This document shows, in pieces, positions 22,780 through 53,070 of a stretch of DNA of 64,000 nt. The position numbers and the translations under genes were made by a program. The notes under the pieces are model-generated. The model was not told the DNA's origin and searched no databases. It saw only the letters and a list, made by a program, of their open reading frames with translations. Every line of letters starts with the position of its first letter. Position 1 is the first letter of the stretch. The stretch covers positions 173,613 through 237,612 of the forward strand of contig JADHOM010000001.1 of the NCBI GenBank assembly GCA_016778985.1. The letters are read 5' to 3'. The stretch comes from Alphaproteobacteria bacterium. GTDB lineage: Bacteria; Pseudomonadota; Alphaproteobacteria; Puniceispirillales; UBA1172.

Positions 22780-22780
22780 C

Positions 22781-24874
22781 TTATGCTCCTTCCCCAGACG
22801 CTTTACGGTCATTTTGCCCAACATGGATAAACAGATTACCCTCACTATCGGATGACACAGTGTCATCAGCTTCGACCAAAATAGTCGTGTCCATTTGCTG
22901 TATCATGGCCGGGCCATTAAGCGTGACGTCAAGTGGCAGGGATTCGCGCTGATAGATCGGCGTATCAATAAATTGCCCGCCAATATGGACTTGCCGAATA
23001 CCGATTTGGGCAGCCTCAAGGCTATCTTTGCGGCCGCTTGGCTGAATAAGCTGAGACAGGTCAAAGGCTTTGCGTTTGCCAATGACAGAGGTGTTTACAT
23101 TGACAATATTGGCATTGATTTTATCCAGCTTAACGCGGAAGCGATTAAAATACACCTCCTCAAATAGGGCTTGGATAGCGTTTTTACTGGCCGGCATCGG
23201 CATATTGTCTAAATTAACATTAAGGATATGGGTTTGGCCAATGAACTGCATATCCAGGCTACGGCTGACAATCATCTGATCAATGTCAACAGGCTCTTTA
23301 TTAATGATCGCGCGGCCGTGTTGTTCTTGTTGGATAAAAACATCATGGAGGCTATTCGCGTCCATTTTTGCAAGTGGTGTGTTGATTGTCTGGACAAAAT
23401 CTTGGCGCAAATCTGCAACCACGCAGCCGAGGGCATTGGTAATCCCCGGACGTGCAGGAACCAGAACGGTTGGAATGCCTAACTCCTTGGCAATCGCGGC
23501 AGCATGTAATGGCCCGGCACCACCAAAGGCAAAGAGGCTGAAGTCACGTGGGTCGGCGCCCAATGAAACCAGCACCATGCGGATAGCGCCCGCCATTTTT
23601 GCATTAGCGACACGCACCACCGCATCCGCCGCAGACACAGCATTCATCTGTAAATGCTGGCCAAGAGTTTGCTCAAAAACTGATTTGATATGATCAAGAC
23701 TGACACCGCCTTCAACCGATTTAACGGCGGTTAATTCAAGCCTGCCAAGGATCATATTAGCATCCGAAATTGTTGGTTCGGTGCCGCCACGACCATAACA
23801 AATAGGTCCTGGGTCTGCGCCAGCACTGTCAGGGCCTACTTCTAATAATCCGGCGGCATTAACGCGCGCAATTGAGCCGCCGCCAGCGCCAACAGTTCGG
23901 ACATCAATCATCGGGACATGAATAGGCATGGCATATTCAATCTCAATCTCATTTGAAACAGAAGGCTTGCCGTTTCTGATGACGGAAACATCAGTTGAGG
24001 TGCCGCCCATATCATATGTGATCAGATGATTATGATTGGTAGCTTTCCCGGTATTAATGGCGGCGATGACGCCTGATGCTGGGCCTGACATGACGGTTTT
24101 AGCGGCTTCTCGGGCAACATCTTGGCTTGATACAGTGCCACCATTGCCATTCATGACCAGCATTTCGCTTTTATATCCGTTGGCTTTCAGCTCACTGACC
24201 AGCCGCTGAATATAGCGTTCCAGCAATGGCTGAACCGAGGCATTTACCGCCGCCGTGACACCGCGTTCAAACTCACGGCTTTCTGATAATAATGCATGCC
24301 CCATCGTGATATATTGATTTGGCCATAGCTCGGCGGCTATCTCGGCAGCCTGATTTTCATGATCAGGATTGGCATAGGCATGAAGGAAATGAATGACCAG
24401 AGATTCGCAACCAGCATCAAGTAATTTTTGAACCGCCTGCCGCATCCCTGCCTGATCAAGAGGGGTGACAACACGGCCGGCATAATCCATTCTCTCGGCA
24501 ACCTCAAGGCGTAAATTGCGGGGAATAATGGGGGTAAACATGCCTTTCATGCCATAGGCTTGCGGGCGTGTTCGGCGGCCCAATTCCAGCACATCACGAA
24601 AGCCCTGGGTGGTGATTAATCCGGTTCGCGATAACTTGCGCTCTAGCACTGCATTAGTTGTTGTCGTGGTGCCGTGAATAATCAGATCAACTGAGCTGAG
24701 ATCAGCATCAGCCTCTTGCAACGCATTAAGCACGCCATAGGCTTGGTTGTCTGGGGTCGTTGGGACTTTGGCAATGGTGACAGAACCGCTATGCGATTCC
24801 AGCATCACTAAATCTGTAAATGTACCGCCGACATCAATGCCAATGACATGCTGGGCTAATGGTGGTTTTGTCAT
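22781..24874 (-). CDS. hyuA: Hydantoinase A/oxoprolinase family protein (HyuA-like, ATP-binding subunit)
   Basis: The N-terminal ASKHA-fold motif IGIDVGGTFTDLV and YDMGGTSTDVS are present. Size is 697 aa. Confidence 0.9.
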   Translation of the reverse strand: MTKPPLAQHVIGIDVGGTFTDLVMLESHSGSVTIAKVPTTPDNQAYGVLNALQEADADLSSVDLIIHGTTTTTNAVLERKLSRTGLITTQGFRDVLELGRRTRPQAYGMKGMFTPIIPRNLRLEVAERMDYAGRVVTPLDQAGMRQAVQKLLDAGCESLVIHFLHAYANPDHENQAAEIAAELWPNQYITMGHALLSESREFERGVTAAVNASVQPLLERYIQRLVSELKANGYKSEMLVMNGNGGTVSSQDVAREAAKTVMSGPASGVIAAINTGKATNHNHLITYDMGGTSTDVSVIRNGKPSVSNEIEIEYAMPIHVPMIDVRTVGAGGGSIARVNAAGLLEVGPDSAGADPGPICYGRGGTEPTISDANMILGRLELTAVKSVEGGVSLDHIKSVFEQTLGQHLQMNAVSAADAVVRVANAKMAGAIRMVLVSLGADPRDFSLFAFGGAGPLHAAAIAKELGIPTVLVPARPGITNALGCVVADLRQDFVQTINTPLAKMDANSLHDVFIQQEQHGRAIINKEPVDIDQMIVSRSLDMQFIGQTHILNVNLDNMPMPASKNAIQALFEEVYFNRFRVKLDKINANIVNVNTSVIGKRKAFDLSQLIQPSGRKDSLEAAQIGIRQVHIGGQFIDTPIYQRESLPLDVTLNGPAMIQQMDTTILVEADDTVSSDSEGNLFIHVGQNDRKASGEGA

Positions 24875-25004
24875 GTTGTTGCCAAACTATATTTATTTGT
24901 ACACAAATGATTTGAAGATTTCTTTATATTTGTCAAGATAGCAAAATCATCTTAGCATCGGAACGGTTATGATTAACTCAAAAATGCTACTCCGAAAGAT
25001 TTGG

Positions 25005-25049
25005 GCGCAAATGATACTAGTACAAATGATATATGCGCAAATATTGGCA
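25005..25049. repeat. Three imperfect tandem repeats with a 15-bp period (GCGCAAATGATACTA / GTACAAATGATATAT / GCGCAAATATTGGCA)
   Basis: Read directly. They lie in the divergent region between hyuA (start 24874) and the membrane-protein/ABC operon. A fourth related copy, ACACAAATGATT, is at 24901-24912. Confidence 0.6.
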
Positions 25050-25079
25050 AAGATAATATATCGCTGGCGGCAATCTGTC

Positions 25080-26510
25080 ATGGCAATGCTGATAATTCTG
25101 GTCGCTTCATTGCTTATGCCTATTAAATTGAGTTTTGCGCATGCTTCAGGGCAAAGTTTTGTCATGCTGTTGCCAACAGATTTTTATACTCTTGGCGGCG
25201 TTTTTGTTGTTGCATTAACTATTGTTTTATTAGCATTAGTGCCTGTCACGGGAACGTCTGGGCTGCATCACAGTTTGGCTTTATGTCGGATAAAGCGGCG
25301 TCGAGGCGTCGCCAAGAGCATTCATTTCTTGGCCTTTATCACTTTTTTCTGGCTCTTATCATCAGGCTGGTATGGCACGACTGATCCATTAAAAAATCCA
25401 CTCACGCTAGGGTTCTGGACAGTGTTTTGGATGGCTCTGGTGATGGTAGAAGGGCTATTTTTCGGGGTTTGGCGATGGCTTAATCCATGGGTCTTCGCCT
25501 ATCACCTGTCTCGCCGAATAATAGAGAGATTAATCGGCAGACAAAAGGTCATGCCATGGCCTCAGCGCCTATCATATTGGCCGGGGGTTTTGTTGTTATT
25601 TGGGTTTGCGGCGTTTACTTTGGCTGATCCAGCTCCCACTGATCCATCACGACTCGCCAGTATTATATTCTGCTATTGGCTGATCACGTTAATCGGCATG
25701 GTGGTCTTCGGGTTCCGCACATGGTCGCGTCATGCGGAGCTGTTTTCAATGATTATGCTTAGCTTTGGCGCATTGCGCGTGATATCAATTTGCGCTGGTC
25801 AATTGCGGCTGGGGATGCCGGGCTGGCGGGTTATGAGAAACCGTCAGGTCGGGGTTGTGAAACCGCATCTGTCAGCGGCGTTTTTCTTGCTCATGCTATT
25901 AGGGGTAGGTTCTTTTGATGGATTTAATGAAACCTTTGTGTGGCTTTCATGGATTAATGTGAATCCCTTAGATTTTCCGGGGCGGTCAGCGATTATTGTG
26001 CCTACACTTAGCGGCATCGTATTCGCTAATCTGATCTTAATAATGATCTTTGGCGTATTGATCTGGCTCGGCATGATGGCAGCATCTGATAGCCCGCAAT
26101 ATCGGTTATCCTTAACCCGTTTGATTAGCCTTTATGCGGCTTCTCTACTGCCGATTGCGCTGGCATATCATGTTGCGCATTATCTGCCATCACTGCTGGT
26201 TGAGATACAGTATGTTGGGCTGGCGATTGATGGCATGTTTGGCAAGAATGTGCATATTCTTGGCTTGCAAGATTTCCATGTTACGGATGGGTTTTTCAAG
26301 CATCTGGATTGGGTGCGTATGATCTGGCTAACGCAAGCTGGAATTGTTGTTGCTGGTCATGTTATTTCGGTGCTGATGGCGCATCACTTGGCCGCTGGAC
26401 GGTATAGCAATCGCTTTGAAACGCTGGTCAGCCAGTTGCCAGTAGCGCTATTTATGATTGGATATACTTGGCTTGGCTTATGGTTGTTGGCGGCGCCAAA
26501 AGGGGGCTAG
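25080..26510 (+). CDS. Hypothetical polytopic membrane protein with N-terminal signal peptide
   Basis: The preferred start at 25080 gives MAMLIILVASLLMPIKLSFAHA. The upstream part of the listed ORF is the repeat-containing AT-rich spacer. About 10-12 hydrophobic segments are present, with conserved-looking His in TM segments (AYHVAHYLP, AGHVISVLMAHHLA). I recognised no family. Confidence 0.6.
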   Translation: MAMLIILVASLLMPIKLSFAHASGQSFVMLLPTDFYTLGGVFVVALTIVLLALVPVTGTSGLHHSLALCRIKRRRGVAKSIHFLAFITFFWLLSSGWYGTTDPLKNPLTLGFWTVFWMALVMVEGLFFGVWRWLNPWVFAYHLSRRIIERLIGRQKVMPWPQRLSYWPGVLLLFGFAAFTLADPAPTDPSRLASIIFCYWLITLIGMVVFGFRTWSRHAELFSMIMLSFGALRVISICAGQLRLGMPGWRVMRNRQVGVVKPHLSAAFFLLMLLGVGSFDGFNETFVWLSWINVNPLDFPGRSAIIVPTLSGIVFANLILIMIFGVLIWLGMMAASDSPQYRLSLTRLISLYAASLLPIALAYHVAHYLPSLLVEIQYVGLAIDGMFGKNVHILGLQDFHVTDGFFKHLDWVRMIWLTQAGIVVAGHVISVLMAHHLAAGRYSNRFETLVSQLPVALFMIGYTWLGLWLLAAPKGG

Positions 26511-31901: not shown

Positions 31902-32789
31902 ATGATGTCTGTCATGTCCTCTAATACTACATATATTCGGCCTTTAACCATAGAAGATGCTGTTGATGTGCTATCGACTTCGGCGGCAGCGGTTATTGCG
32001 GCTGGTTGCACGGATTTATTTCCCCTGACGTCCGCCCCTCGCATGACTGGTCAGGTGCTGGATGTAACTGGCATTAAAGACATGCGCGGCATTACTGATA
32101 ATGGTGACATGCGCAGATTTGGCGGTGCTACTACATGGACAGATATTATCCGCGCTGATCTGCCGCCGGCCTATGATATGCTCAAATTAGCAGCCCGCGA
32201 AATTGGCTCTATTCAAATTCAAAATGCTGGAACGATTGCAGGTAATCTCTGTAATGCGTCACCGGCGGCGGATAGTATTCCGTGCTTGCTGGCGCTGGAT
32301 GCGTCTGTTGAGCTGACCTCAGCATCTGGCTTAAGGCAACTGCCGCTTAGTGATTTTATTGTCGGTCCTCGGAAAACGTTGCGCCAAGCAGATGAGATTA
32401 TGACAGCGGTGTTGGTGCCAAAATCCTCTGAGACGGGAGTATCATCTTTCCGTAAACTGGGGACACGCAAATATCTTATTATTTCTATCGTCATGGCCGC
32501 CGCGCGAATTGAGGTCAAAGATAACCGCATTACCCATGCCGCGCTATCATTAGGGTCGTGCAGTCCGGTTGCGGTCAGGCTAGATAAGGTTGAGGCAGAT
32601 TTGATCGGCATGGATATCCACAACGCCACTATCCCGGCATCACATTATGTTGAGGAGACAGATATTGAGGCGACAATTAATCCTATTGACGATGTGCGCG
32701 GCACTGCCAGCTATCGAATTACGGCGGCAAAAACGCTGTTATGTGAGGCGATTGATAACTGCCTCAATCAGGTGAGGAGTGGGGGATGA
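31902..32789 (+). CDS. Xanthine dehydrogenase family FAD-binding (medium, CoxM-like) subunit
   Basis: It has an FAD_binding_5-like N-terminus (AAGCTDLFPL) and a C-terminal CO-dehydrogenase-flavoprotein-like domain (DDVRGTASYR). Its stop overlaps the next start. Confidence 0.85.
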   Translation: MMSVMSSNTTYIRPLTIEDAVDVLSTSAAAVIAAGCTDLFPLTSAPRMTGQVLDVTGIKDMRGITDNGDMRRFGGATTWTDIIRADLPPAYDMLKLAAREIGSIQIQNAGTIAGNLCNASPAADSIPCLLALDASVELTSASGLRQLPLSDFIVGPRKTLRQADEIMTAVLVPKSSETGVSSFRKLGTRKYLIISIVMAAARIEVKDNRITHAALSLGSCSPVAVRLDKVEADLIGMDIHNATIPASHYVEETDIEATINPIDDVRGTASYRITAAKTLLCEAIDNCLNQVRSGG

Positions 32790-35545
32790 GTGATCAGGAA
32801 CAGTTTACGCTAACCGTAAATGGCACCAAAGCAAATGTGTCCCGCCCAGCTGGTATGCGGCTAAGCGAAGTCTTGCGTGAGGAATTGCATCTGACGGGTA
32901 CAAAAATAGGATGCAATGCTGGCGATTGTGGGGCCTGTACCGTTCTTGTTGATGGTGAGCCTGTGTGTTCATGTCTGATGACGCTGGCGAAAGCCGATGG
33001 CTGTCATATTGAAACGGTGGAAAGCTTGGCTAATGGATCAAAGCTATCGTTACTGCAACAAGCCTTTAGTCGTCATGGTGCGGCTCAATGTGGAATTTGT
33101 ACACCGGGGATGTTGATGGCGGCGGCACCTTTAATTCGCGCCAACAAAGCCCCAAGCCGTGCCGAGGTTGAGGACGCGCTTGGTGGGGTTCTCTGCCGCT
33201 GTACGGGTTATGCTAAGATTATTGATGCGGTGATGGATGCCGCGATGGAAAAACCTGCCATGCCTATGCCTGTCCGACATGGTGCTGTTGGGGCAAGGGT
33301 GGAACGGCTTGACGGCATCCCTAAACTTAATGGTGATGAGGTTTTTGGTGCTGATTACTGGCCCGAAAATGCGCTTTACCTGCGGGTGCTTCGCTCCCCT
33401 TATCATTCGGCACAATTTACCATTGGGGATGTAGCAGCATGGGTGGCTAAGCATGATCTCATTAGTCATGTTTTTTTAGCTAGTGATATTGATGGTGAAA
33501 ATCAGTTTGGCGTTATCCCGCCAATGGCTGATCAGCCAGCGCTTGCCGTTGATGCGGCGAGATTCAAGGGCGAAGCGGTCGCCATCATCGTCGGCCAGTC
33601 GCAGGATGTCGCGGCAATGGATATATCCGACTTTCCCATTGAATGGACGGAATTGCCAGCCATTATGGATGTCGATGTGGCGCTTGCCGATGGCACAACA
33701 TTGATCCATGCGCATCGTGAAAACAATATCCTGATCAGTGGCATCGTCAAACATGGCGATATTGATAAGGGATTTGGAGCAGCAGATCATATTGCTGAGA
33801 TGTCATTTTCTACCAGTTATGTAGAGCATGCTTATATCGAGCCAGAAGCAGGGGTGGCGTGGATGGATGGCGATACGGTTGTCATTCAAGCCTGTACCCA
33901 GGCGCCGATTATGGATCGTGATGATACCGCCAAGGTGCTTGGTTTGCCGGTGGAGAAAATACGCATTATTCCCTCAGCAACAGGTGGCGGCTTTGGCGCA
34001 AAGCTAGATGTCTCTGTTCAGCCCTTGCTTGGTCTGGTGGCGCTCAAAACCGGTCAGCCATGCCGCATTGTCTATTCGCGAAACGAGTCTATGATGTCAA
34101 CGACGAAACGCCATCCGGGGGTTATGCAGGCGCGCATTGCGGCTGATAAAAAAGGCCATATCACGGCAATGGAATTCCAAGGTGATTTTAATACCGGTGC
34201 CTATGCCAGTTGGGGGCCGACGGTTGCATCACGGGTACCTATCCATGCCTCTGGCCCATATAAAACGCCAAATTATTTAGCCAAAGCTCGCGCCATTCAT
34301 ACCAATGGCCCGCCATCAGGGGCGTTTCGCGGCTTTGGTGTACCGCAGTCAACGATCATTCAAGAAGCGCTATATGATGAACTGGCAGAAAAATGTGGTA
34401 TCGATCGATTAGCCTTCAGACGTCTCAACGCCTTAAAGAATAATGATATCACGATCTGTAACCAAACGCTACCAGCGGTCGGTATCGATGATTGTCTGGC
34501 GGCGTTAGAGCCGTTCTGGCAAAAGCACCAGCAACAGATTGCTGATTTTAATGCTAAGAATAGCCGCAAAAAACGCGGTATTGGCGTGTCATCATGTTGG
34601 TATGGATGCGGTAATACGGCTTTGCCAAACCCGTCGACGATCAGGCTGGGGATTACAGCAGATGGTCAGGTTGTCTTGCATCAAGGGGCGGCAGATATTG
34701 GTCAAGGCTCAAACACGGTCATACCCCAGATTTGCGCTGATGCGCTCGGCCTCCCATTAGCGCATATCTCAATTATTGGCGGCGATACAGCTATCACCCC
34801 CGATTGCGGCAAGACCTCGGCTTCACGCCAGACTTTCATAACAGGTAAAGCCGCTATGTTAGCAGGACAAGCCCTACGCCGACAGATTCTGCGGCTCAGT
34901 AATCTAGGTGATGATGCGATTATTGAAATGGCAGAAGGGTCTATTCATGTCAGCCACGGCGATAAGCAGCATGAGATTGCGCTTAGTGAGATGGCAGCAA
35001 ATCCCTATGGCTATGTACTGATGGCAGAGGAAACCTATAACCCGCCAACTGAGGAGCTGGATGCGTTTGGTCAGGGTAAGCCTTATGCGCTTTATGGGTT
35101 TGGGGCACATGCCGCCGTGGTTGAGGTGGATATGCATTTAGGGACGGTGAAGGTATTACATATTTCCGCCGCTCATGATTTGGGCAAGGTCGTCAATCCG
35201 CTATTGGCAGAAGGACAAATAGATGGCGGTATTGCGCAAGGGCTAGGTATGGCCTTGATGGAAGAATATATCCCTGGCCGCACCGAAAACCTGCATGATT
35301 ATCTCATCCCGTCTATCGGCGATATGCCAGAGATTGAATATCATCTGATTGAAGTGCCAGACCCTGAAGGCCCGATGGGTGTTAAGGGGTTGGGTGAGCA
35401 TGTCTTGATCCCAACCGCCCCGGCTATTCTTAATGCTATTACCAATGCCACTGGCGGCGCTAGATTATATCAAACACCTGCTGTTCCGCATCGGGTATTG
35501 GCGGCCATTCAGGCAAATAATAATGTCAATGAGGCCGCAGAATGA
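32786..35545 (+). CDS. Molybdenum hydroxylase: fused [2Fe-2S] small-subunit domain + molybdopterin-binding large subunit (aldehyde oxidase/xanthine dehydrogenase family)
   Basis: The two FeS motifs are CNAGDCGAC and CGICTPGM...CRCTGY. These are followed by a/b-hammerhead and Moco domains, and a C-terminal catalytic-Glu context (GLGEHVLIPTAPAILNAITNATG). No CODH AYxCSFR loop was seen. Confidence 0.9.
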   Translation: MSDQEQFTLTVNGTKANVSRPAGMRLSEVLREELHLTGTKIGCNAGDCGACTVLVDGEPVCSCLMTLAKADGCHIETVESLANGSKLSLLQQAFSRHGAAQCGICTPGMLMAAAPLIRANKAPSRAEVEDALGGVLCRCTGYAKIIDAVMDAAMEKPAMPMPVRHGAVGARVERLDGIPKLNGDEVFGADYWPENALYLRVLRSPYHSAQFTIGDVAAWVAKHDLISHVFLASDIDGENQFGVIPPMADQPALAVDAARFKGEAVAIIVGQSQDVAAMDISDFPIEWTELPAIMDVDVALADGTTLIHAHRENNILISGIVKHGDIDKGFGAADHIAEMSFSTSYVEHAYIEPEAGVAWMDGDTVVIQACTQAPIMDRDDTAKVLGLPVEKIRIIPSATGGGFGAKLDVSVQPLLGLVALKTGQPCRIVYSRNESMMSTTKRHPGVMQARIAADKKGHITAMEFQGDFNTGAYASWGPTVASRVPIHASGPYKTPNYLAKARAIHTNGPPSGAFRGFGVPQSTIIQEALYDELAEKCGIDRLAFRRLNALKNNDITICNQTLPAVGIDDCLAALEPFWQKHQQQIADFNAKNSRKKRGIGVSSCWYGCGNTALPNPSTIRLGITADGQVVLHQGAADIGQGSNTVIPQICADALGLPLAHISIIGGDTAITPDCGKTSASRQTFITGKAAMLAGQALRRQILRLSNLGDDAIIEMAEGSIHVSHGDKQHEIALSEMAANPYGYVLMAEETYNPPTEELDAFGQGKPYALYGFGAHAAVVEVDMHLGTVKVLHISAAHDLGKVVNPLLAEGQIDGGIAQGLGMALMEEYIPGRTENLHDYLIPSIGDMPEIEYHLIEVPDPEGPMGVKGLGEHVLIPTAPAILNAITNATGGARLYQTPAVPHRVLAAIQANNNVNEAAE

Positions 35546-37005
35546 CCAAAAAAGCATCAGAAAAAATTAGATGCGATGCCTGTCCGGTGATGTGTTATAT
35601 CGCTGATGGCAATTCAGGTGCTTGTGATCGTTATGCAAACAAAGATGGCCAGATTATCCGGCTTGACCCTCTGACAATTTTGGATCGCCGAATAGCCGCA
35701 GGCGATGCTGTCAAACCATTTCTAGGAGCTAGCTGGGATGGTAGCCTCGGCCAAGAAAATGAGATGTTTGTTACCGCCATTGGGGCAGGCACAACCTATC
35801 CAGACTATAAGCCGGCGCCATTTATTGTTGGGCAATATCACAATGATGCTGATTTTGTGACGGTTGTAACCGAAGCTATTTTTTCCTATTGTGGGGTTAA
35901 GGTTAAAATTGATACTGATCGCCATCTCGGAAAAGAAGGTGCGGTTATTCGCGTTAATGATGAGCCTGTGGGCTTGGTCATTACCAGTGAATATGGCTCT
36001 CAAATGCTATCATTGGGCGGTGTTGATCATCTGACGGGCGGCAGCAAAGCCGAAGGTCGAGTGACGTGTGATACGCTGATGAAGCTGTGTAATAAAGAAG
36101 CTGTTGAGCTAACCATTGATGATGGCTCTACGGTCGTGGTGCAAGCTGGCAAGCCGCCAATTGTTGATGGTAAAGCGGAAATGAGAATGCGGGTTGGCTG
36201 CGGCTCGGCAACAATCGGTATGTTTGCCTCGCAATGGGTTGGGCTGGTTGATGAGGTTGTTGTTGTCGATGATCATATCACTGGCGTTGTCTCTGAGCAC
36301 CAAGCCGGCAAGGTGCTGGATTGGCCTGATACCGGCATCACGATAAATGGCCGCAGATCAACACCTGGCCGCTATTTTCAAGTGGCAGAGCCGGGGCTGG
36401 GATGGGGCGGCACCGACCTAGAGGATCCGCTAAAAATACTTGGCGCATGGCGACCAGCCAAAGGCGCAAGACCTGGGCTAACGTTGTTAATGGTATCGAC
36501 AACGGGTGAGCATTCTGGCTATTTTGTTCTTGATGATGATCTAACGCCGCAGCCACATCCAATGCCGAAAGCCTTGCAGGATAGCGTTAATTTGATCTCA
36601 GAAAATTGTGAACCGGCGCTTTGCACAGTTATGTTTATGGGGGGTGCTGGTGGCTCATTACGGTCGGGGGTAACCAAGAACCCGATCCGCTTGACCGCAT
36701 CGGTACAGGCCCGAAAAACCAAAGTCACTTGCGGCGGCATAGAAGGTTTTGTCTGGCCGGGTGGCGGTATCACGATTATGGTCGATGTATCAAAAATGCC
36801 AGATCAGGCTTTTGGCTATGTGCCGACGCCGGCGATTGTGGCGCCGCTGGAGTTTACCGTACCCAAAGACGAATATATTGCGCTTGGCGGTCATCAAGAT
36901 GCCATCCGCTCAGTGGCTGATATTATGGCAACAGGTGGCGAGTATTCCAAAAATAGTCAGGTCGTATTAACCACAGATACTGAAGATTTTGACCATGATG
37001 ATTAA
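35542..37005 (+). CDS. Cys-rich Fe-S protein resembling entries annotated as 6-hydroxynicotinate reductase (HNR-like)
   Basis: The start overlaps the hydroxylase stop (ATGA). The N-terminal cluster motif is C11-x2-C14-x3-C18-x9-C28 (CDACPVMCYIADGNSGAC). Family naming is from memory of similar N-termini and of the same neighbours (UPF0280, AA_synth); it was not verified. Confidence 0.5.
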   Translation: MTKKASEKIRCDACPVMCYIADGNSGACDRYANKDGQIIRLDPLTILDRRIAAGDAVKPFLGASWDGSLGQENEMFVTAIGAGTTYPDYKPAPFIVGQYHNDADFVTVVTEAIFSYCGVKVKIDTDRHLGKEGAVIRVNDEPVGLVITSEYGSQMLSLGGVDHLTGGSKAEGRVTCDTLMKLCNKEAVELTIDDGSTVVVQAGKPPIVDGKAEMRMRVGCGSATIGMFASQWVGLVDEVVVVDDHITGVVSEHQAGKVLDWPDTGITINGRRSTPGRYFQVAEPGLGWGGTDLEDPLKILGAWRPAKGARPGLTLLMVSTTGEHSGYFVLDDDLTPQPHPMPKALQDSVNLISENCEPALCTVMFMGGAGGSLRSGVTKNPIRLTASVQARKTKVTCGGIEGFVWPGGGITIMVDVSKMPDQAFGYVPTPAIVAPLEFTVPKDEYIALGGHQDAIRSVADIMATGGEYSKNSQVVLTTDTEDFDHDD

Positions 37006-37025
37006 ACTTTGATGAAAGTCATTCT

Positions 37026-37946
37026 ATGCTAGCAACAGCCTCATCGCTTCAGGCCAGTTGGCTGGCTCCTGATAACCGCCTGCATTTGTCGCATGGGCCT
37101 ATTGATTTGATCATTAAGGCAGAGGGGCAATCCGCGCAACTTGCCTATCGCAAAGCCGTTCATGCTATGCAGCATTTACTTGAACGGCTCGTTGTTGAGC
37201 TGCCTGATTTGCGCCTGCGAACGGCTAGACCGGAACGCTATCTGCACCCGATTGCACGGCGCATGGCGCGGGCAACAGGCGGTTATGGCAAGCGCTTTGT
37301 TACCCCTATGGCGGCGGTCGCAGGGGCAGTAGCGGATCATGTGCTTGCGGCAATGACTGCCGAAGCCGGGCTGACCAAGGCCAGCGTCAATAATGGTGGT
37401 GATATCGCGTTTTGGCTGGCTGATGGTCATAAGGTAACGGCATTAATGGCCAATCTGGATACCGCAAAATGCACTATCTGCTCAGATACTATCTGGCGCG
37501 GCATGGCGACATCTGGATTTAGCGGGCGTAGTTTTTCGCTTGGTATTGCTGATGCGGTTGTTGTGCTTGCCGATAACGCGGCGAATGCAGATGCTGCGGC
37601 AACTATGATCGCTAATGCGGTAAACCTGCCCCCTGATCTGCCGCCATATCATCCTGATATGCAAGCGATCAGCCGTATTCCTGCCCATGATCTTTTGCCC
37701 GAAAGTGATCTAGGCAACCAGCTGGTGACGCGCCAAGTCGGGGCGCTATCTGCGGCGTCAATCAATTATGCCTTAAATGCTGGCGAAGACGAAACACGGG
37801 CAATTATGGCGATTAAACCCATCGCAGGTGCATTAATTAGGGTCAAAGATCATATCCGTGTTGTTGGTCTGAATCATAACTTGGATCAGAACCTTGGATC
37901 AAACTTTCTATGCCAACGCTACCACCAAAAGGAGATGATACCGTGA
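37026..37946 (+). CDS. UPF0280-like (ApbE-related fold) protein
   Basis: The 306-aa protein has ApbE-like stretches (MAAVAGAVAD, NNGGDIA). It sits between the HNR-like and AA_synth genes. The assignment is from memory. Confidence 0.5.
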   Translation: MLATASSLQASWLAPDNRLHLSHGPIDLIIKAEGQSAQLAYRKAVHAMQHLLERLVVELPDLRLRTARPERYLHPIARRMARATGGYGKRFVTPMAAVAGAVADHVLAAMTAEAGLTKASVNNGGDIAFWLADGHKVTALMANLDTAKCTICSDTIWRGMATSGFSGRSFSLGIADAVVVLADNAANADAAATMIANAVNLPPDLPPYHPDMQAISRIPAHDLLPESDLGNQLVTRQVGALSAASINYALNAGEDETRAIMAIKPIAGALIRVKDHIRVVGLNHNLDQNLGSNFLCQRYHQKEMIP

Positions 37947-37948
37947 CA

Positions 37949-38524
37949 ATGTTCCCCATTCGGAAAACCCAGCTTTTTCTTGAAACGATTTTTCACGAAG
38001 GTGGGCCAGCCCCTGAAACGCCGCGCCTGCGTGCTGCTATGGTCGCTGTTGTCAGCAATCCCTTTGCCGGGGCTTATCATGAGGATTTACAATCTGCTAT
38101 GGATGATTTGAAACCGCTGGGGCTGATGATGACGGATGAGCTGATTGATTCGCTAGGGGGATTAGATGGTATTGATGGCTATGGCAAAGCTGGGCTTGCT
38201 GGCGAAGATGGTGAGCTCGAACAAACCGCACTTTGGCATGTGCCGGGCGGCTATGCGATGCGCGAAAGATTAGGTGAGGCTAAGGCGATTGTGCCGTCTT
38301 CAATGAAAGTGGGTGGCGCCGGATGCGCTATTGATATCCCGTTAGGGCATATTAATGCCGCCTATGTCAGGAGCCATTTTGATGCTATGGAAGTGCGTCT
38401 GTCTGATGCCCCTCGGCGTGGTGAGATTATGTTCTGTCTGGCCATGACCAAGGGGCCACGTATTCATCACCGCATGGGGGGATTAGGTGTTGAAGATGTT
38501 AAGGGTGAGGATGGCTTGCGCTAA
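37949..38524 (+). CDS. Amino-acid-synthesis (AA_synth/DUF1185) family protein, paralog 1
   Basis: The start is ATG at 37949, or GTG at 37943 overlapping the upstream TGA, with AAGGAG at 37929. The sequence (MFPIRK..NPFAG..GKAGLAGEDGELE..SHFDAMEV..DAP..GPRIHHRMGG) is clearly homologous to the ORF at 44212-44814. Confidence 0.6.
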   Translation: MFPIRKTQLFLETIFHEGGPAPETPRLRAAMVAVVSNPFAGAYHEDLQSAMDDLKPLGLMMTDELIDSLGGLDGIDGYGKAGLAGEDGELEQTALWHVPGGYAMRERLGEAKAIVPSSMKVGGAGCAIDIPLGHINAAYVRSHFDAMEVRLSDAPRRGEIMFCLAMTKGPRIHHRMGGLGVEDVKGEDGLR

Positions 38525-38557: not shown

Positions 38558-39340
38558 TTAATCAACAAATGCGCGTTCAACAACATATTGCCCGGGCATG
38601 CTGTTTGAGCCTTCGGTAAATTGCGCCGCATCTAAGATCGCCTTAACATCCTTGAGCATCGCCATTGACCCACATATCATGACGCGATCATGTGCTGGAT
38701 CAAGCGGCGGCAGATTGAGATGGGCATAGAGCTGGCCATTTTCCATGAGTGTCGTAATACGCCCCATAAAGCTGGATTCTTCCCGCGTTGTCGTTGTCAC
38801 CAGCGTTAAGCGGTCGGCAAGTTCACCGACTAATGGGTCTGTCTTGGTCGCCGCAACCGTATTGATGGAATAGGCTAGCTCTGCCACTTCACGGCAACTA
38901 TGGGTGACAATCAGAGCTTCAAACTTGTCATAGGCTTCGGGGTCACGGATAAGTGATGCAAATGGCGCAAATCCTGTCCCTGTTGAGATCATCCAAAGCC
39001 TCTTGCCTGGCAATAGCGCATCAAGAACTAGGGTGCCGGTCGGTTTTTTGCGGAACCAAACCTGATCACCGACTTTGATATTTTGCAGATGTTCGGTTAA
39101 AGGCCCGCCCGGAACTTTGATTGAATAAAACTCCAGCGTTTCATCCCATGATGGGCTGGCGATGGAATAGGCGCGCCAGACAGGTTTTTCCCCGGGCAGG
39201 CCAATCATCACAAACTCACCTGACCGAAAACGGAAACTCGCTGGCCGCGTTAAGCGGAAACGGAATAAGCGGTCAGTATAATGTTCAACCTCGGTAACGG
39301 TTTCAGAAAAAGCAGAATCAGGACAGGTGAAGCTCATCAT
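38558..39340 (-). CDS. fpr: Ferredoxin--NADP(+) reductase (bacterial Fpr type)
   Basis: The likely start is the ATGATG at 39340. The FAD motif is RAYSIAS and the NADP motif is GTGFAPF. The C-terminus is ...YVVERAFVD. Confidence 0.88.
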   Translation of the reverse strand: MMSFTCPDSAFSETVTEVEHYTDRLFRFRLTRPASFRFRSGEFVMIGLPGEKPVWRAYSIASPSWDETLEFYSIKVPGGPLTEHLQNIKVGDQVWFRKKPTGTLVLDALLPGKRLWMISTGTGFAPFASLIRDPEAYDKFEALIVTHSCREVAELAYSINTVAATKTDPLVGELADRLTLVTTTTREESSFMGRITTLMENGQLYAHLNLPPLDPAHDRVMICGSMAMLKDVKAILDAAQFTEGSNSMPGQYVVERAFVD

Positions 39341-39482
39341 ATTCTCACTTAGTTTTGTTGGTTTTGGTATTGCGCTACTGACCAATCTTGGGGTTGACTA
39401 TTCTTTATCTTGATTACAGGGTTAAAGCGGATAACGCGGTTATAATTTGTTTGTATACGAATGAATTATAAACCTCAAGTTA

Positions 39483-40127
39483 TTATTTTATCACGGTCTT
39501 CCAGGTGCGATTATCCACTATATTTTTTAAATCATCTGGCGTATCAACATCAAGAAAGCATCTGCTATCATTTATAGCAAGTGGGTTAATTGCCTCAGGG
39601 TGTGTTTTGATAATATCTCTGCCGCCTTTATCCCCTGTTATTTGTTCAAGCATCGGGAAAAATCGTTGCCCCCAGATAACAGGATGTGCGGTTCTATCCG
39701 CAATCACTGGCTCCGCAATTATTGGCAGGGTAATCGCCTCATCAGGTTGTGTGAGGCGCTTATGGTGGCGGATCAAATCATTGACCAGTGGCACTGTGAT
39801 ATTGGGCATATCTCCCAGCATGATCATGACATCAGTGGTGCGCGCATTTATATGACTAAGCCCATGTCGGATAGAGCCGCTCATGCCTTCAGCATAATCA
39901 GAATATTCGTGCAAATCTAATGGCATATCAGATAAGGCAGCGGCGATAAGATTGGCGTCATGACCTAGAATAACCATAACCTCATCAAGCCCACTAGCCA
40001 GCATAGTATTGGCGATGCGGCGAATCATTGGCTGGTTGCTGTTATCAGCAGGCATGAGCAGTTTATTAGCTTTGCCCATGCGTTTGGATTGTCCAGCGGC
40101 TAATAGGATTCCGCATATATATCGCAT
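39483..40127 (-). CDS. mocA: MobA-like nucleotidyltransferase, probable molybdenum cofactor cytidylyltransferase
   Basis: The N-terminal motif GILLAAGQSKRMG is present. It sits immediately downstream of xdhC on the same strand. Confidence 0.78.
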   Translation of the reverse strand: MRYICGILLAAGQSKRMGKANKLLMPADNSNQPMIRRIANTMLASGLDEVMVILGHDANLIAAALSDMPLDLHEYSDYAEGMSGSIRHGLSHINARTTDVMIMLGDMPNITVPLVNDLIRHHKRLTQPDEAITLPIIAEPVIADRTAHPVIWGQRFFPMLEQITGDKGGRDIIKTHPEAINPLAINDSRCFLDVDTPDDLKNIVDNRTWKTVIK

Positions 40128-40131
40128 TGCT

Positions 40132-41133
40132 TTATCCGTTTGTTGTCATTGCTGCTGATATCTTGCCCCGATAGACAGCGATCAGTTGCGCCAGAATTGA
40201 AACGGCAATCTCAGCCGGAGTTTTCGCCATAATTGCTAATCCGGCGGGGGCGTTAATGCGGGCAAGCTGATCATCATTAAAGCCATTTGCTTTTAATCGC
40301 TCACAGCGTTTGGCGTGAGTGCGCGTGCTGCCTAAACTGGCGATATAAAACGCTGGTTTTCCAAGTGCCACCTGTAGCGCCGCATCATCGAGTTTAGGAT
40401 CATGGGTTAGTGTCACAATCGCTGTATGCTCATCAATATTGGCACTCTCTAATAACTCATCAGGCCAGTCGGTGATAATGGCGATATTAGGAAAGCGCTC
40501 AGCATTGGCAAAATGGCGGCGCGGATCAATGATAGTGGTGTTAAAGCCAGCAGCAATGGCCATGGGGGCGAGATGCTGGCTGATATGTACCCCGCCAATG
40601 ATATAAAACCTTGGTTCAGGTGGGATAACCAAATAAAAATGCTTAGCATCATCATTACATTGATTGGTTGGATATAGATTTGCCGCCTGCTCTGGGCTTG
40701 CCACCCGCATCTGATGCTGATGGAGCTGGCAATCAATAGCAATCATTTGGTGCTGCGCCGACTGTGTTTTGACATAAGAAAACAGTTGAGCCGCATCATT
40801 CTCAAAGGCAGAGGCGGCACAGACCCAAACCGATATTGCGCCGCCACAAGATAATCCGACTTGCCAAGCATCGGCGTCAGCAACCGCAAAATCTAATCTT
40901 TGCGATGTTTTTCTGGCCATAACGTCATGTGCGGCTGTGATAACAGCGCTTTCAACACAGCCGCCAGACACTGAACCTGCAATCTGTTCATCATCACGGA
41001 TAATCATGATGCTGCCTGCTGGCCGTGGTGATGACCCCCATGTCTGGATAACAATAGCAATAGCCAGATTATGCCCAGACTGATGCCAGTCAGCGGCAAT
41101 GGTCAGAATATTGTCATTAGATAATGGCCGCAT
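40132..41133 (-). CDS. xdhC: XdhC/CoxI family molybdoenzyme maturation protein
   Basis: Two-domain architecture: XdhC_CoxI N-domain (WGSSPRPAGS...GSVSGGCVE) and a Rossmann-like C-domain (FYIIGGVHISQ). Confidence 0.85.
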   Translation of the reverse strand: MRPLSNDNILTIAADWHQSGHNLAIAIVIQTWGSSPRPAGSIMIIRDDEQIAGSVSGGCVESAVITAAHDVMARKTSQRLDFAVADADAWQVGLSCGGAISVWVCAASAFENDAAQLFSYVKTQSAQHQMIAIDCQLHQHQMRVASPEQAANLYPTNQCNDDAKHFYLVIPPEPRFYIIGGVHISQHLAPMAIAAGFNTTIIDPRRHFANAERFPNIAIITDWPDELLESANIDEHTAIVTLTHDPKLDDAALQVALGKPAFYIASLGSTRTHAKRCERLKANGFNDDQLARINAPAGLAIMAKTPAEIAVSILAQLIAVYRGKISAAMTTNG

Positions 41134-44211: not shown

Positions 44212-44814
44212 TTAGACGCCAGCCGGATTTTCCAGATCAGCCCCAATCGCGGCTAAATCAGAATAGCGATCACCAATGCGGTGATGCGGTCTGCCACCGG
44301 TTGAGCCAGCAAAGGCAACGATCAATTCATGATTTGTCGGTGCATCATGGATATGCATCTGGACTGTCAGATAATGTGACCGCCTGCCTGTATCATTTTT
44401 ATCCATGAGCGGAATACTGATCTGCGTATTGGCAGGGCCGCGGGTATTCGTAAATCCGAGATAGGCTTTGCCGCCAATCGCCTTGCGCAAGGCATTGCCA
44501 TAATTAACGGTATGGATAATGGCTGATGCATGTTCAAGTTCACCTTCAAGCCCTGCCATAGACGCCTTGCCAATGGCTTCGATAGCTTCCCCTCCGCCGC
44601 CAAGTTCTAGCATTTGGTCAGTCAGAATCTGTCCCAATTTAGGCCCAAATGCCTTGATCTCTGGCATCAGGTCATCAACAAACCCACGGCCTGACCATGG
44701 ATTTTGAATGACGGCGGCGGCGGCAAAAAGCACTAATGGCGCCTCCGCTGCTTTGCCGCCATCTGATGTGATGACTTCTTTATAGGTAACGATTTTTCTA
44801 ATCTGTGGTTCCAT
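44212..44814 (-). CDS. Amino-acid-synthesis (AA_synth/DUF1185) family protein, paralog 2
   Basis: It shares IRK, NPW/F.G, GKA.(M)AG.EGELE, SH, DAP and RPHHRIG blocks with the ORF at 37949-38524. It is last in the ridA-hydrolase operon. Confidence 0.6.
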   Translation of the reverse strand: MEPQIRKIVTYKEVITSDGGKAAEAPLVLFAAAAVIQNPWSGRGFVDDLMPEIKAFGPKLGQILTDQMLELGGGGEAIEAIGKASMAGLEGELEHASAIIHTVNYGNALRKAIGGKAYLGFTNTRGPANTQISIPLMDKNDTGRRSHYLTVQMHIHDAPTNHELIVAFAGSTGGRPHHRIGDRYSDLAAIGADLENPAGV

Positions 44815-47705: not shown

Positions 47706-47738
47706 CAGCAAGACAAAGCTGATATAGAGAGGGGTTGA

Positions 47739-51007: not shown

Positions 51008-51018
51008 TAAAACCTCCA

Positions 51019-51906
51019 TCAAGATTGTTTTTTAAGTCCAAGTTTTTGTCTGGCTTCTTCGGCAGTAAGAACACGCGCTCCCATGCGTTCAATAATCTCA
51101 CGGGCACGTTCTACCAGCTGAGCATTTGTCGCCAGCACGCCTTTTTCCAGATAGATATTATCCTCAAGCCCAACCCGAACATTGCCGCCCATAGCAACCG
51201 CGGCGGCGGCCATCGGCATTTGCATTCGCGATATCCCAAAAGATGCCCATGATGCATTCGCAGGAAGCTCATCTTTCATGACTTTCATCGTATCAACAGA
51301 TTGATCGGCGCCCCACGGAATGCCCATGCAAATTTGGAACATTGGCGGCTCATCAATCAGCCCCTCGGCAATCATCTGCTTAGCAAAACGGATATGACCT
51401 AGCTCAAACACTTCCAGTTCAGGCTTGACACCTAATTCCTGCACCATAGCCGCCATCTTGCGCAAATAGGCAGGCGTGGAAATATAAATCTCATTGCCAT
51501 TACCAAAGTTCATGGTGCCGCAATCAAGACTACAAATCTCTGGTTTAAGAGCCGTCACATGAGCCAGCCTTTGTTCGGCGTGGATCATATCGGTGCCGGG
51601 GCCAGGCATTGCTGGATTAGTCTCATCAGGAACCCAATCACCACCCATACCAGCGGTTAGGTTAATCACAACATCAGTATCACTAGACCGCACTTTATCA
51701 ACAACCTGACGGAATAGCTCGACATCCCGTGATCCTTTGCCAGTCGCTGGATCACGAACATGGATATGTGCCGCGGTTGCGCCAGCCTTTGCTGCCTCGA
51801 TTGAGGCTTTGGCAATTTCATCAGGCGTCACCGGAACATGCTCGCTTCTGCCTGTTGTATCACCTGCCCCGGTAACAGCGCAGGTTAAGATAACATCCAT
51901 ATTCAT
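51019..51906 (-). CDS. Beta-keto acid cleavage enzyme (BKACE/DUF849; 3-keto-5-aminohexanoate cleavage family), candidate dehydrocarnitine cleavage enzyme
   Basis: The N-terminus ([11 protein letters not shown]...[29 protein letters not shown]) is typical of DUF849 TIM-barrel enzymes. Confidence 0.85.
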
Positions 51907-51964
51907 GGCTAATCTCCCTCAATGTTTACATCTATACTTTGCATGATACAGGCTTGCAGTTATC

Positions 51965-51997: not shown

Positions 51998-52020
51998 TTT
52001 TATGATCATGAGCATATCTT

Positions 52021-53061: not shown

Positions 53062-53070
53062 AGTGGGGAA

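Follow-up and report, generated by a model that had tools for sequence, protein, structure and literature searches.

The UPF0280 protein encoded directly behind a 6-hydroxynicotinate reductase (Hnr) homologue in a SAR116/Puniceispirillales-like alphaproteobacterium is most likely a dedicated maturation factor for that reductase, a conclusion that is well supported by the conserved and co-diverging gene pair, the ApbE-like fold and the retained metal-site residues. It is also plausible, if tentative, that maturation consists in the transfer of FMN from FAD to Hnr.

The operon and its probable substrate

Two genes for a molybdenum (Mo) hydroxylase, hnr, the UPF0280 gene and a DUF1185 gene form a tightly, translationally coupled operon in the window, that is, the whole 64-kb stretch of DNA that was analyzed (Table 1). 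The stop codon of the second Mo hydroxylase gene overlaps the start of hnr (ATGA), 20 nt separate hnr from the UPF0280 gene, and the stop codon of the latter overlaps the start of the DUF1185 gene (GTGA), for which the GTG at 37943 is the likely start, the mechanical ORF beginning at 37910. An earlier reading of the DNA, made from the sequence only, had placed hnr and the UPF0280 gene at the same positions and with the same gap, all of which was confirmed.

Table 1. Genes and motifs of the hnr operon and its downstream neighbor (positions in the window)
Feature	Position	Strand	Basis or remark
FAD-binding subunit, xanthine-dehydrogenase-family Mo hydroxylase (putative nicotinate dehydrogenase)	31902..32789	+	Pfam FAD_binding_5 and CO_deh_flav_C; first gene of the operon
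Mo hydroxylase subunit, fused 2x[2Fe-2S] and molybdopterin-binding	32786..35545	+	Pfam Fer2, Fer2_2, Ald_Xan_dh_C, MoCoBD_1, MoCoBD_2; synteny
Short-form 6-hydroxynicotinate reductase (Hnr) family protein, 487 aa, ATG start	35542..37005	+	Homology; AlphaFold2 model
CX2CX3CX9C motif in Hnr (C11, C14, C18, C28), presumed Fe-S ligands	35572..35625	+	Translation CDACPVMCYIADGNSGAC
GGAGGSLR motif in Hnr, residues 367-374, with Ser372 (candidate flavin acceptor) and nearly invariant Arg374	36640..36663	+	Translation
UPF0280/COG2122 (Pfam PF27030) ApbE-superfamily protein, 306 aa, ATG start; proposed Hnr maturation factor	37026..37946	+	
ATSGFSGR in UPF0280, residues 161-168; probable counterpart of the ApbE 'ATSG..R' catalytic Ser and phosphate-binding Arg	37506..37529	+	Translation, alignment
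D189-A-A-A-T193 in UPF0280; counterpart of the ApbE Mg2+-ligand Asp and Thr	37590..37604	+	Translation, alignment
DUF1185 / 'AA_synth' (PF06684) protein	37943..38524	+	Pfam; PDB 3byq match, E 4e-54
Ferredoxin-NADP reductase-like flavoprotein	38558..39385	-	Pfam FAD_binding_6 and NAD_binding_1

The gene for the FAD subunit of the Mo hydroxylase was found upstream of hnr in most of 80 alphaproteobacterial loci, and a nicotinate-type N-heterocycle is the best explanation for what the operon serves. As in the cluster of E. barkeri, hnr stands beside a nicotinate-dehydrogenase-type Mo hydroxylase, whereas the Mo subunits are fused in the window and split in E. barkeri. A further difference is that no enamidase homologue is present in the 64-kb window, and among the 80 related loci just a single one encodes such a protein within 10 kb; judging from the genes downstream, the pathway would continue by a glutarate / acyl-CoA route rather than a B12-dependent fermentation.

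Because an enamidase is missing nearby in the window and in 79 of the 80 related loci, one step after Hnr has no assigned enzyme in these marine Alphaproteobacteria, which would favor UPF0280 as a pathway enzyme for a small molecule, such as tetrahydro-6-oxonicotinate or a nucleotide-linked intermediate, and the ApbE relative Ftp of T. pallidum can indeed act as an FAD pyrophosphatase (PMC4436053). However, UPF0280 is no less present in clusters that encode enamidase and the rest of the E. barkeri-type set, and its place behind hnr does not depend on which pathway lies downstream. The cluster of Thermanaeromonas toyohensis holds all nine enzymes of the E. barkeri-type nicotinate pathway in addition to UPF0280 and DUF1185, and therefore no catalytic step is left for UPF0280; the nine-enzyme pathway is the one reportedly described by Alhapel in 2006. 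The ApbE superfamily is not known to have any small-molecule activity besides FAD hydrolysis. A role in the pathway itself is thus considered quite unlikely, and we infer that UPF0280 acts on Hnr and not on a metabolite.

Linkage of hnr and UPF0280 across genomes

Among 159 assessable loci, 146 have UPF0280 next to hnr, either directly downstream or inside the cluster, and this linkage spans Alphaproteobacteria, Bacillota, and Thermodesulfobacteriota (at least three phyla). Among the alphaproteobacterial loci the two genes adjoin in 76 of 80 (three have no partner and one is truncated), and 70 of the 83 non-truncated loci with a long-form hnr, which were checked for stop-to-stop ORF artefacts, are linked. 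Gaps of -19 to +9 nt were observed in T. toyohensis, Sporomusa ovata, and two MAGs, and in one locus (L091) the pair is separate from the Mo genes. The cassette hnr-UPF0280-DUF1185 recurs across phyla, DUF1185 following UPF0280 in most loci, and the sequences of Hnr and UPF0280 co-diverge (r = 0.94, 9316 pairs). The adjacency on which the sequence-only reading had built is, by these figures, not due to chance; in earlier work the linked genes had been described no further than as "conserved proteins of unknown function".

Between 13 and 17 Hnr-like loci are without UPF0280. Three close relatives among them (L066, L069, and L073) and several Hnr-like clades have none within 10 kb, as might be expected if the adjacency were incidental and had no functional meaning. 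Such an explanation is effectively refuted by the synteny data, since the linkage extends over so many loci and phyla, the reading frames overlap or nearly do so, and the two proteins co-diverge; its probability is close to nil.

The tight translational coupling, the co-divergence and the recurring cassette could also mean that UPF0280, possibly along with DUF1185, does not work on Hnr as an enzyme but belongs to the reductase complex, either as a stoichiometric subunit or as a partner that binds a ligand, for example a nucleotide or the substrate, or docks the electron donor. Nine metagenomic gene calls that join the C-terminus of Hnr to UPF0280 in one polypeptide point in the same direction, but they are fragments and possibly frameshift or gene-calling artefacts. 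In addition, the conserved residues of UPF0280 are the catalytic metal ligands of ApbE rather than surface patches, and E. barkeri Hnr, as purified, reportedly consisted of one type of subunit; a structural role of this type has a small but real chance of being correct.

UPF0280 as a member of the ApbE superfamily

The UPF0280 protein of the window matched NCBIfam NF003322 (PRK04334.1-2, UPF0280) with an E value of 5.5e-85 over 270 of 295 positions, its score of 285 bits lying just below the curated cut-off of 290 bits, and an identical database protein (P0121) bears Pfam PF27030 'AbpE_bact'. When its AlphaFold2 model (pLDDT 90.9) was compared with the PDB by Foldseek, the best match was DVU1097 (2o34, E 2.7e-9), which a profile search of PDB sequences also retrieved (E 1.6e-9), and ranks 3-41 were all ApbE, Ftp or FmnB structures (E 3e-4 to 7e-2, TM 0.25-0.5); besides DVU1097, these were the sole significant PDB matches. 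Alignment by hhalign with the ApbE proteins of E. coli, Salmonella, and V. cholerae (93.6% probability, E 2e-7) showed that the sequence similarity covers the C-terminal, catalytic half of ApbE. The ApbE-related fold that the earlier reading had ascribed to UPF0280 is supported by the Foldseek matches. The proteins are nevertheless distant, with an identity of just ~10-17%. Against the Pfam ApbE profile (PF02424, gathering threshold 25.6 bits) the orthologue from Sporomusa passed with 26.1 bits, whereas the window protein scored 9 bits (E 1.2) and that of locus L174 24.3 bits, and the matches cover just profile positions ~117-243 of 266. Another difference from ApbE/Ftp/FmnB is that UPF0280 of the window is cytoplasmic, and neither a signal peptide nor a lipoprotein signal was found in it.

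The catalytic half appears to retain the residues of the Mg2+/diphosphate site. Among 138 partners, T162, S163, G164, G167, and R168, which align to GISTSG of E. coli Ftp, as well as D189 and T193, which align to 'EADAWDT' of E. coli, are at least 95% conserved. S163 aligns within the ApbE 'ATSG' (S240 in T. pallidum, S241 in V. cholerae), and R168 is invariant, although it lies one residue out of register with R245 of T. pallidum, at a place where the alignment has gaps; D189 and T193 are, by alignment, the counterparts of T. pallidum Ftp D284 and T288. In that enzyme, S240 is the catalytic Ser, R245 is the phosphate-binding Arg, and D284 and T288 are Mg2+ ligands, the substitutions D284A and T288A abolishing activity (PMC4436053). 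By contrast, the whole segment that carries the general-base His of ApbE (V. cholerae H257, 'HIIDP'; a loop of ~18 residues) is deleted in the UPF0280 alignment, and no His column exceeds 57% among the 138 partners. The N-terminal half of ApbE, with its pocket for the flavin ring and the adenine, gives no sequence alignment, and no counterparts of E. coli Y60 and E169, of K165 or of the Tyr/Asn contacts to the flavin ring were found in UPF0280; it has been suggested that the ApbE homology of COG2122 may not extend to this N-terminal, flavin-ring-contacting part (PMC5764234). Of the ApbE active site, the Mg2+-ligand Asp and Thr are thus kept, the Ser and Arg probably so, and the general-base His loop is gone.

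The linkage evidence would be identical for an Hnr-specific maturation or accessory factor with other chemistry, such as Fe-S assembly or repair or sulfur delivery. Among solved structures the nearest is 2o34, that of the COG2122 protein DVU1097 of D. vulgaris Hildenborough. In D. vulgaris, COG2122, DUF39, and NIL/ferredoxin are required for homocysteine synthesis; Rauch and colleagues proposed that COG2122 has a role in persulfide formation (PMC5764234), which would serve the synthesis of homocysteine and cysteine. Hnr, for its part, has invariant Cys ligands and the nearly invariant Cys220 and Cys356. However, the best Cys column of the Hnr-linked UPF0280 proteins reaches only 17% of 138, and therefore UPF0280 cannot be the carrier of a persulfide; the hnr cluster has no conserved genes for sulfur transfer, and the conserved ApbE Mg2+/diphosphate site points to nucleotide chemistry. 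Chemistry of this other kind is regarded as unlikely.

The COG2122 proteins of sulfate reducers and methanogens (DVU1097, DvMF_0044, and MA1715) belong to the same family as UPF0280 of the window according to the NCBIfam PRK04334 models, resemble it in the motifs G[RH]SxSLG and ADAAAT, and likewise occur alongside a ferredoxin-dependent two-electron reduction. They differ in that identity is ~20%, the window protein falling into another subfamily (PF27030, NF003322), and in that they are genetically tied to DUF39, NIL/ferredoxin and homocysteine synthesis, not to Hnr. In both D. vulgaris and M. acetivorans, whose COG2122 proteins are the sole members of the family with genetic data, COG2122 functions in homocysteine/sulfide assimilation with DUF39, not known as a flavoprotein (PMC5764234). 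Because these other members are genetically required for homocysteine synthesis, the function that the earlier reading proposed for UPF0280 cannot be extended to the family as a whole unless a further argument is supplied.

The reductase and its candidate acceptor residues

The hnr product had no match in Pfam or NCBIfam; close homologues bear the NCBI name '6-hydroxynicotinate reductase', and it shares 41% identity over 456 aa (E 8e-120) with the hnr product of T. toyohensis, which, coming from a complete E. barkeri-type cluster, was used as the reference in place of the E. barkeri sequence itself. For a proteobacterial Hnr, 42% identity to the E. barkeri enzyme has been described (PMC3511419). 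The earlier reading of the first gene as encoding an HNR-like Fe-S protein thus stands: the homologous core and the four-Cys motif are shared with E. barkeri Hnr (EC 1.3.7.1), and the motif is invariant in all full-length family members, wherever the N-terminus is present. Unlike the E. barkeri enzyme, the window protein begins at this motif and has no N-terminal 2x[4Fe-4S] ferredoxin domain, long-form Hnrs having ~55 additional residues with two CxxCxxCxxxC motifs. The ferredoxin-NADP reductase-like flavoprotein encoded downstream, a homologue of which lies no more than 10 kb from hnr in 17 of 80 loci, is a possible electron donor to an Hnr without this domain.

Alhapel et al. in 2006 reportedly found a covalently bound flavin, one [2Fe-2S] and two [4Fe-4S] clusters in E. 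barkeri Hnr, so that UPF0280 resembles ApbE/Ftp/FmnB in that the adjacent gene codes for a redox protein for which a covalent flavin has been reported. The AlphaFold2 model of the window Hnr (pLDDT 84) gave no PDB fold match and showed no known flavin-binding fold, which would be expected if the flavin is held mainly by the covalent bond. In contrast to the partners of ApbE/Ftp/FmnB, Hnr has no FMN_bind domain, and the canonical ApbE target motif D-x-x-[S/T]-G-A-[S/T] is absent from the window protein; across 30 diverse Hnrs it occurred once, by chance and in a variable region. The notion of a flavinylation pair retains the conserved gene pair and the kinship with ApbE, and is weakened by the missing target motif and by the several Hnr-like clades without a partner.

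If UPF0280 matures Hnr by flavin transfer, the following scheme may be proposed. Short-form Hnr would reduce a hydroxylated pyridine ring, as in the conversion of 6-hydroxynicotinate to 1,4,5,6-tetrahydro-6-oxonicotinate, and UPF0280 would be a cytoplasmic ApbE-superfamily protein dedicated to it, whose retained Mg2+/diphosphate site (T162-S163-G164...R168, D189...T193) would bind FAD and which would attach the FMN portion to Hnr through a phosphoester bond with a Ser or Thr. We infer FMN as the transferred group from the ApbE kinship. The candidate acceptor is Ser372 in GGxGGS(A/L)R, possibly assisted by His245 or Arg374. Against this scheme, the flavin might be bound through Cys220, Tyr151 or a His, and such a link would normally form autocatalytically.

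Ser372 occurs in 146 of the 147 Hnrs linked to UPF0280, and in the model it opens a helix that follows a Gly-rich loop; in three independent unlinked Hnr lineages it is replaced by Gly. Similarly, His245 is conserved in 145 of the 147 and lost in unlinked lineages. However, the unlinked close relatives L066, L069, L073, and L166 still keep both residues, and one Hnr that has a UPF0280 partner (P0319) has neither. Phylogeny confounds the association of the two residues with UPF0280, and a count by lineage shows no significance.

Implications for the COG2122 family

A broader possibility is that UPF0280/COG2122 proteins are general cytoplasmic, ApbE-derived flavin transferases that attach FMN covalently to ferredoxin-dependent two-electron reductases without a canonical flavin fold, their clients being Hnr (at Ser372) and, in methanogens and sulfate reducers, the DUF39 enzyme that forms homocysteine. 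Although this generalization is unlikely at present, it would, if true, explain the requirement for COG2122 in homocysteine synthesis and would imply that proteins are flavinylated by a second system, which recognizes a motif of its own.

Organization and Conservation of the hnr-UPF0280 Pair

The sequence-only reading had placed the gene for an Fe-S protein resembling 6-hydroxynicotinate reductase (Hnr) 20 nt upstream of a gene for a UPF0280 protein, and both open reading frames as well as this spacing were confirmed (table). The two genes lie within a run of same-strand genes with touching ends. The ATGA at the end of the preceding Mo-hydroxylase subunit gene contains the hnr start, and the UPF0280 stop is embedded in a GTGA whose GTG has a Shine-Dalgarno-like AAGGAG nine bases 5' of it, which fits a start of the DUF1185/'AA_synth' (PF06684) gene at position 37943. 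Scans of the operon detected promoter-like and terminator-like matches inside it at chance level only. The genes hnr, UPF0280, and DUF1185 form a three-gene cassette.

Features of the hnr region in the window
Feature	Position	Strand	Remark
Hydantoinase/oxoprolinase A and B genes	21028-24874	-	
ORF with no Pfam match	24969-26510	+	513 aa; directly 5' of ABC-transporter binding protein gene
Liv/urea-type ABC transporter, MarR regulator			Upstream of operon
Mo-hydroxylase subunit	32786-35545		
hnr	35542-37005	+	487 aa
UPF0280	37026-37946	+	306 aa
DUF1185, first paralogue	37943-38524	+	
FNR-like gene	38558-39385	-	FAD_binding_6 + NAD_binding_1; directly after operon
XdhC and MobA-like genes	39483-41133	-	Mo-cofactor maturation; beside operon
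DUF1185, second paralogue	44212-44814	-	Further downstream
Amidase, alpha/beta hydrolase, RidA			Further downstream
Aldehyde dehydrogenase, ADP-forming acyl-CoA synthetase, acyl-CoA dehydrogenase, BKACE, enoyl-CoA hydratase, 3-hydroxyacyl-CoA dehydrogenase	46221-54818		

The first of the two DUF1185 paralogues shows translational coupling to UPF0280 and lies 3' of it in the majority of loci, across a range that extends from Alphaproteobacteria to Bacillota. Structures of this family (PDB 3byq and 2qtp), which has no known function, show a chorismate-mutase-like fold and are described as a hexamer. The sole basis of its Pfam name, 'amino acid synthesis', is the neighboring Liv-type transporters, which are here part of a nicotinate-type cluster.

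A genome scan covered the 80 closest loci (79 alphaproteobacterial loci and one gammaproteobacterial MAG, with Hnr 65-79% identical to that of the window), in which the order Mo-FAD, Mo-FeS/MoCo, Hnr, UPF0280, DUF1185 was kept almost everywhere. UPF0280 directly followed hnr in 76 of them; one locus was cut at the hnr end, and three (L066 Acidisphaera, L069 Granulosicoccaceae, and L073 Acetobacteraceae) had no UPF0280 within 10 kb. PF27030, the Pfam family of UPF0280, was also found immediately after hnr on long contigs of Thermanaeromonas toyohensis, Sporomusa ovata, and two MAGs, all of which encode a longer form of Hnr (gaps of +9, -14, -19, and -17 nt). In locus L091, the pair has a GntR regulator of its own in front of it and is 7 kb away from the Mo genes; the UPF0280 partner therefore tracks hnr rather than the Mo enzyme. 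With 80 more long-form loci from a metagenome scan, and after correction of the counts for long stop-to-stop frames in GC-rich DNA, 146 loci were linked, 13 unlinked, and 12 truncated; hence the two genes were linked in 146 of 159 assessable loci. Four further look-ups added one linked and three unlinked cases. The unlinked cases were made up of two clades and three singletons, all of them divergent, and of a few recent losses. Over 137 loci, the pairwise identity of Hnr was correlated with that of UPF0280 (r = 0.94; r = 0.59 for distant pairs). Chance adjacency is excluded, and a functional tie of UPF0280 to Hnr is very likely.

In addition, nine metagenomic gene calls (P0274, P0294, P0297, P0299, P0305, P0320, P0336, P0360, and P0369) contained the Hnr C-terminus and UPF0280 in one polypeptide. 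These calls are fragments and may represent either an artefact (frameshift or gene calling) or a real fusion.

Identity and Architecture of Hnr

The 487-aa Hnr had no match in Pfam or NCBIfam; however, it has thousands of homologues, the close ones being named '6-hydroxynicotinate reductase' by NCBI, and 1245 relatives were collected in a search of 1.84 billion cluster representatives. Many full-length relatives have about 510 aa, with 35-43% identity and about 55 extra N-terminal residues that align as a 2x[4Fe-4S] ferredoxin domain, whereas the window protein is a short form that lacks this domain. The shared core opens with an invariant CX2CX3CX9C motif (C11, C14, C18, and C28), and Cys220 in 'GCGSA' is almost invariant. 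The ferredoxin domain and the Cys motif agree with the cofactor set of the E. barkeri enzyme, which reportedly contains one [2Fe-2S] cluster, two [4Fe-4S] clusters, and a covalently bound flavin. As E. barkeri was not among the matches listed in the profile search, T. toyohensis served as its proxy: its cluster holds the complete E. barkeri-type set (split Mo hydroxylase, enamidase, Hnr, 2-(hydroxymethyl)glutarate dehydrogenase, serine-dehydratase-like enzyme, B12 mutase, PrpF-type isomerase, isocitrate-lyase-type lyase, and aconitase-type dehydratase), and its Hnr is 41% identical to the window protein (E 8e-120). A similar value, 42%, was published for Bradyrhizobiaceae Hnr against the E. 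barkeri enzyme (2012 paper, PMC3511419). The names of close homologues, the identity to T. toyohensis Hnr, and the invariant Cys motif thus bear out the earlier description of an HNR-like Fe-S protein.

The Hnr model (pLDDT 84) had no significant fold match in PDB (best E 0.035, TM <0.12); the GcvT C-terminal barrel gave faint Pfam matches only, in 12 of 30 Hnr members, and was faint in the fold search too. The core of about 450 aa looks like a large family (>1200 cluster representatives) without a solved structure. Of 80 loci, 17 have a homologue of the FNR-like gene that follows the operon, no more than 10 kb away from hnr. Since proteobacterial Hnr has no long-form ferredoxin domain, this protein may deliver electrons from NAD(P)H to it.

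Relationship of UPF0280 to ApbE

Within the ApbE superfamily, the window protein belongs to UPF0280/PF27030. It matched NCBIfam NF003322 with an E-value of 5.5e-85, five bits below the curated cut-off; an identical database protein carries the recent Pfam family PF27030 'AbpE_bact', and JGI names its relatives 'ApbE superfamily uncharacterized protein (UPF0280 family)'. No signal peptide was found in it. The ApbE-related fold suggested in the sequence-only reading was recovered when an AlphaFold2 model (pLDDT 90.9) was compared with known structures by fold search: the best PDB match was the D. vulgaris COG2122 protein DVU1097 (2o34, E 3e-9), and ranks 3-41 were exclusively the FMN transferases ApbE, Ftp, and FmnB (E 3e-4 to 7e-2, TM 0.25-0.5, identity 9-17%). 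At the sequence level, a profile of close relatives matched only 2o34 among PDB sequences and did not find ApbE. The Pfam ApbE score was 9 bits for the window protein and 26.1 bits, above threshold, for its Sporomusa orthologue (profile positions 117-243). Likewise, hhalign against the single E. coli ApbE sequence was weak (3% probability), whereas the alignment of 138 Hnr-linked partners against E. coli, Salmonella, and V. cholerae ApbE reached 93.6% probability (E 2e-7).

In these alignments, UPF0280 'GIATSG' (159-164) corresponds to ApbE 'GISTSG', and 'AD..V.VlA..AA.ADAAAT' (175-193) to 'SVTVIAPTALEADAWDT'. D189 and T193 match T. pallidum D284 and T288 (published numbering), first-sphere Mg2+ ligands whose mutation abolished activity, and S163 and R168 probably correspond to T. 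pallidum S240 and R245 (PMC4436053; PMC12052999). Each of the four residues is at least 95% conserved in the Hnr-linked subfamily, and the N-terminal half, which in ApbE contacts the flavin ring (E. coli Y60), could not be aligned in sequence with UPF0280. Therefore, as judged from these alignments, UPF0280 appears to retain that half of the ApbE active site which binds diphosphate and Mg2+. Unlike ApbE, it lacks the 'HIIDP' loop of roughly 18 residues that holds the proposed general base V. cholerae H257, and no counterpart of E. coli E169 was identified. No conserved His or Cys was found anywhere in the Hnr-linked subfamily (138 sequences). A statement of 'no flavin-binding homology' is attributed at second hand to Rauch and Perona (2016). 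An ApbE (PF02424) enzyme label was considered and rejected because the His loop is absent, the score of the window protein falls below the family threshold, and the D-x-x-[S/T]-G-A-[S/T] flavinylation motif was not found as a family motif in Hnr.

Possible Functions of UPF0280

UPF0280 is likely an accessory or maturation factor, because it is present with or without all nine pathway enzymes and whatever the downstream route. Its presence even where all nine are encoded also makes it quite improbable that it is itself a small-molecule enzyme. The single best mechanism, unproven and put forward tentatively, is that UPF0280 would transfer FMN in an ApbE-like manner. A structural or ligand-binding subunit is an unlikely alternative, and we give similarly low probability to maturation of another kind. 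For the latter, a role in persulfide formation was suggested for the M. acetivorans orthologue MA1715, which aids sulfide assimilation (PMC5764234); the lack of a conserved Cys argues against a persulfide carrier in the Hnr-linked subfamily.

In D. vulgaris Miyazaki, COG2122 is needed for homocysteine synthesis, with a fitness profile closely matching that of DUF39 (r = 0.98) (PMC5764234). Neither UPF0280 nor nicotinate is mentioned in a 2025 review of ApbE (PMC12052999), and no paper that links UPF0280 to Hnr came up in our literature searches. The expectation that the pair would reveal the function of the entire UPF0280 family was too broad, given that other COG2122 members are needed for homocysteine synthesis. 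A common flavin-installing role in both contexts is possible, if speculative, because both involve ferredoxin-dependent two-electron reductions, and one-electron chemistry is usually coupled to two-electron chemistry through a flavin.

Candidate Flavin Acceptor in Hnr

If ApbE-like FMN transfer takes place, Hnr would be the target. No canonical flavin fold is visible in its model, which would suit a mainly covalently tethered flavin but proves nothing. Among conserved residues, Thr107, Thr110, Thr439, Tyr151, and Cys220 are candidates for a covalent link. Two positions, His245 and Ser372, separate linked from unlinked lineages. His245 occurs in 145 of 147 linked Hnr, and the five divergent unlinked lineages all lack it; Ser372 occurs in 146 of 147 linked Hnr and is replaced by Gly in the divergent clades A and B and in protein P0356, so that linked proteins have 'GGxGGS(A/L)R' and unlinked ones 'GGxGGGV(R/M)'. 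In the model, Ser372 begins the helix that follows a glycine-rich loop, a position resembling that of the flavinylated Thr of NqrC (PMC4767422). However, both residues are missing from P0319 although it is linked, Ser372 is kept in L083 and L084 although they are unlinked, and a rule that Gly372 means no partner fitted three of four additional proteins. Counted by lineage, the association of the two residues with linkage was not significant. Ser372 as the acceptor is a prediction only, a lead rather than a result, because there are few unlinked lineages, these are divergent, and P0319 runs counter to the pattern.

Divergent Hnr-like clades without UPF0280 (L085, L092-L094, L098, L110, L122, L126, L172, L173, and L175) have 'GGxGGGV(R/M)', have lost His245, and neighbor other amidohydrolases, Mo hydroxylases, CN-hydrolase, or transporters. 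These proteins may reduce other N-heterocycles and have their cofactors arranged differently.

Probable Catabolic Route

As annotated, the gene neighborhood is consistent with breakdown of a nicotinate-type compound via glutarate-like intermediates. The block from aldehyde dehydrogenase to 3-hydroxyacyl-CoA dehydrogenase is in keeping with an Azorhizobium-like route leading from the opened ring through glutarate; neither this block nor the XdhC and MobA-like genes were conserved within 10 kb of hnr in other loci. No enamidase homologue was found in the 64-kb window, and among 80 related loci only a single one encodes such a protein. Hydantoinase/oxoprolinase A and B genes are present in the window and in loci L005, L025, L036, and others; 15-25 of the 80 loci have them no more than 10 kb away from hnr. 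An ATP-dependent lactam hydrolase may here replace enamidase in opening the ring of tetrahydro-6-oxonicotinate. A homologue of the 513-aa ORF is conserved in 12 of 80 related loci.

Implications

To our knowledge, nearly all known targets of ApbE flavinylation are extracytosolic or have an FMN_bind domain, and one short motif is common to all. If true, the proposed transfer would represent a second version of this system, in which a cytoplasmic His-less ApbE relative serves an Fe-S reductase without a known flavin fold. It would account for flavin acquisition by Hnr of the nicotinate pathway, would make production of recombinant Hnr feasible via co-expression of its partner, and would offer a concrete testable activity for UPF0280/COG2122, whose part in homocysteine synthesis by methanogens and sulfate reducers has been left undefined since 2014-2018. 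Even without flavin transfer, the near-obligate hnr-UPF0280-DUF1185 cassette adds two accessory proteins to a widespread catabolic route for pyridine rings, which is abundant in marine Alphaproteobacteria.
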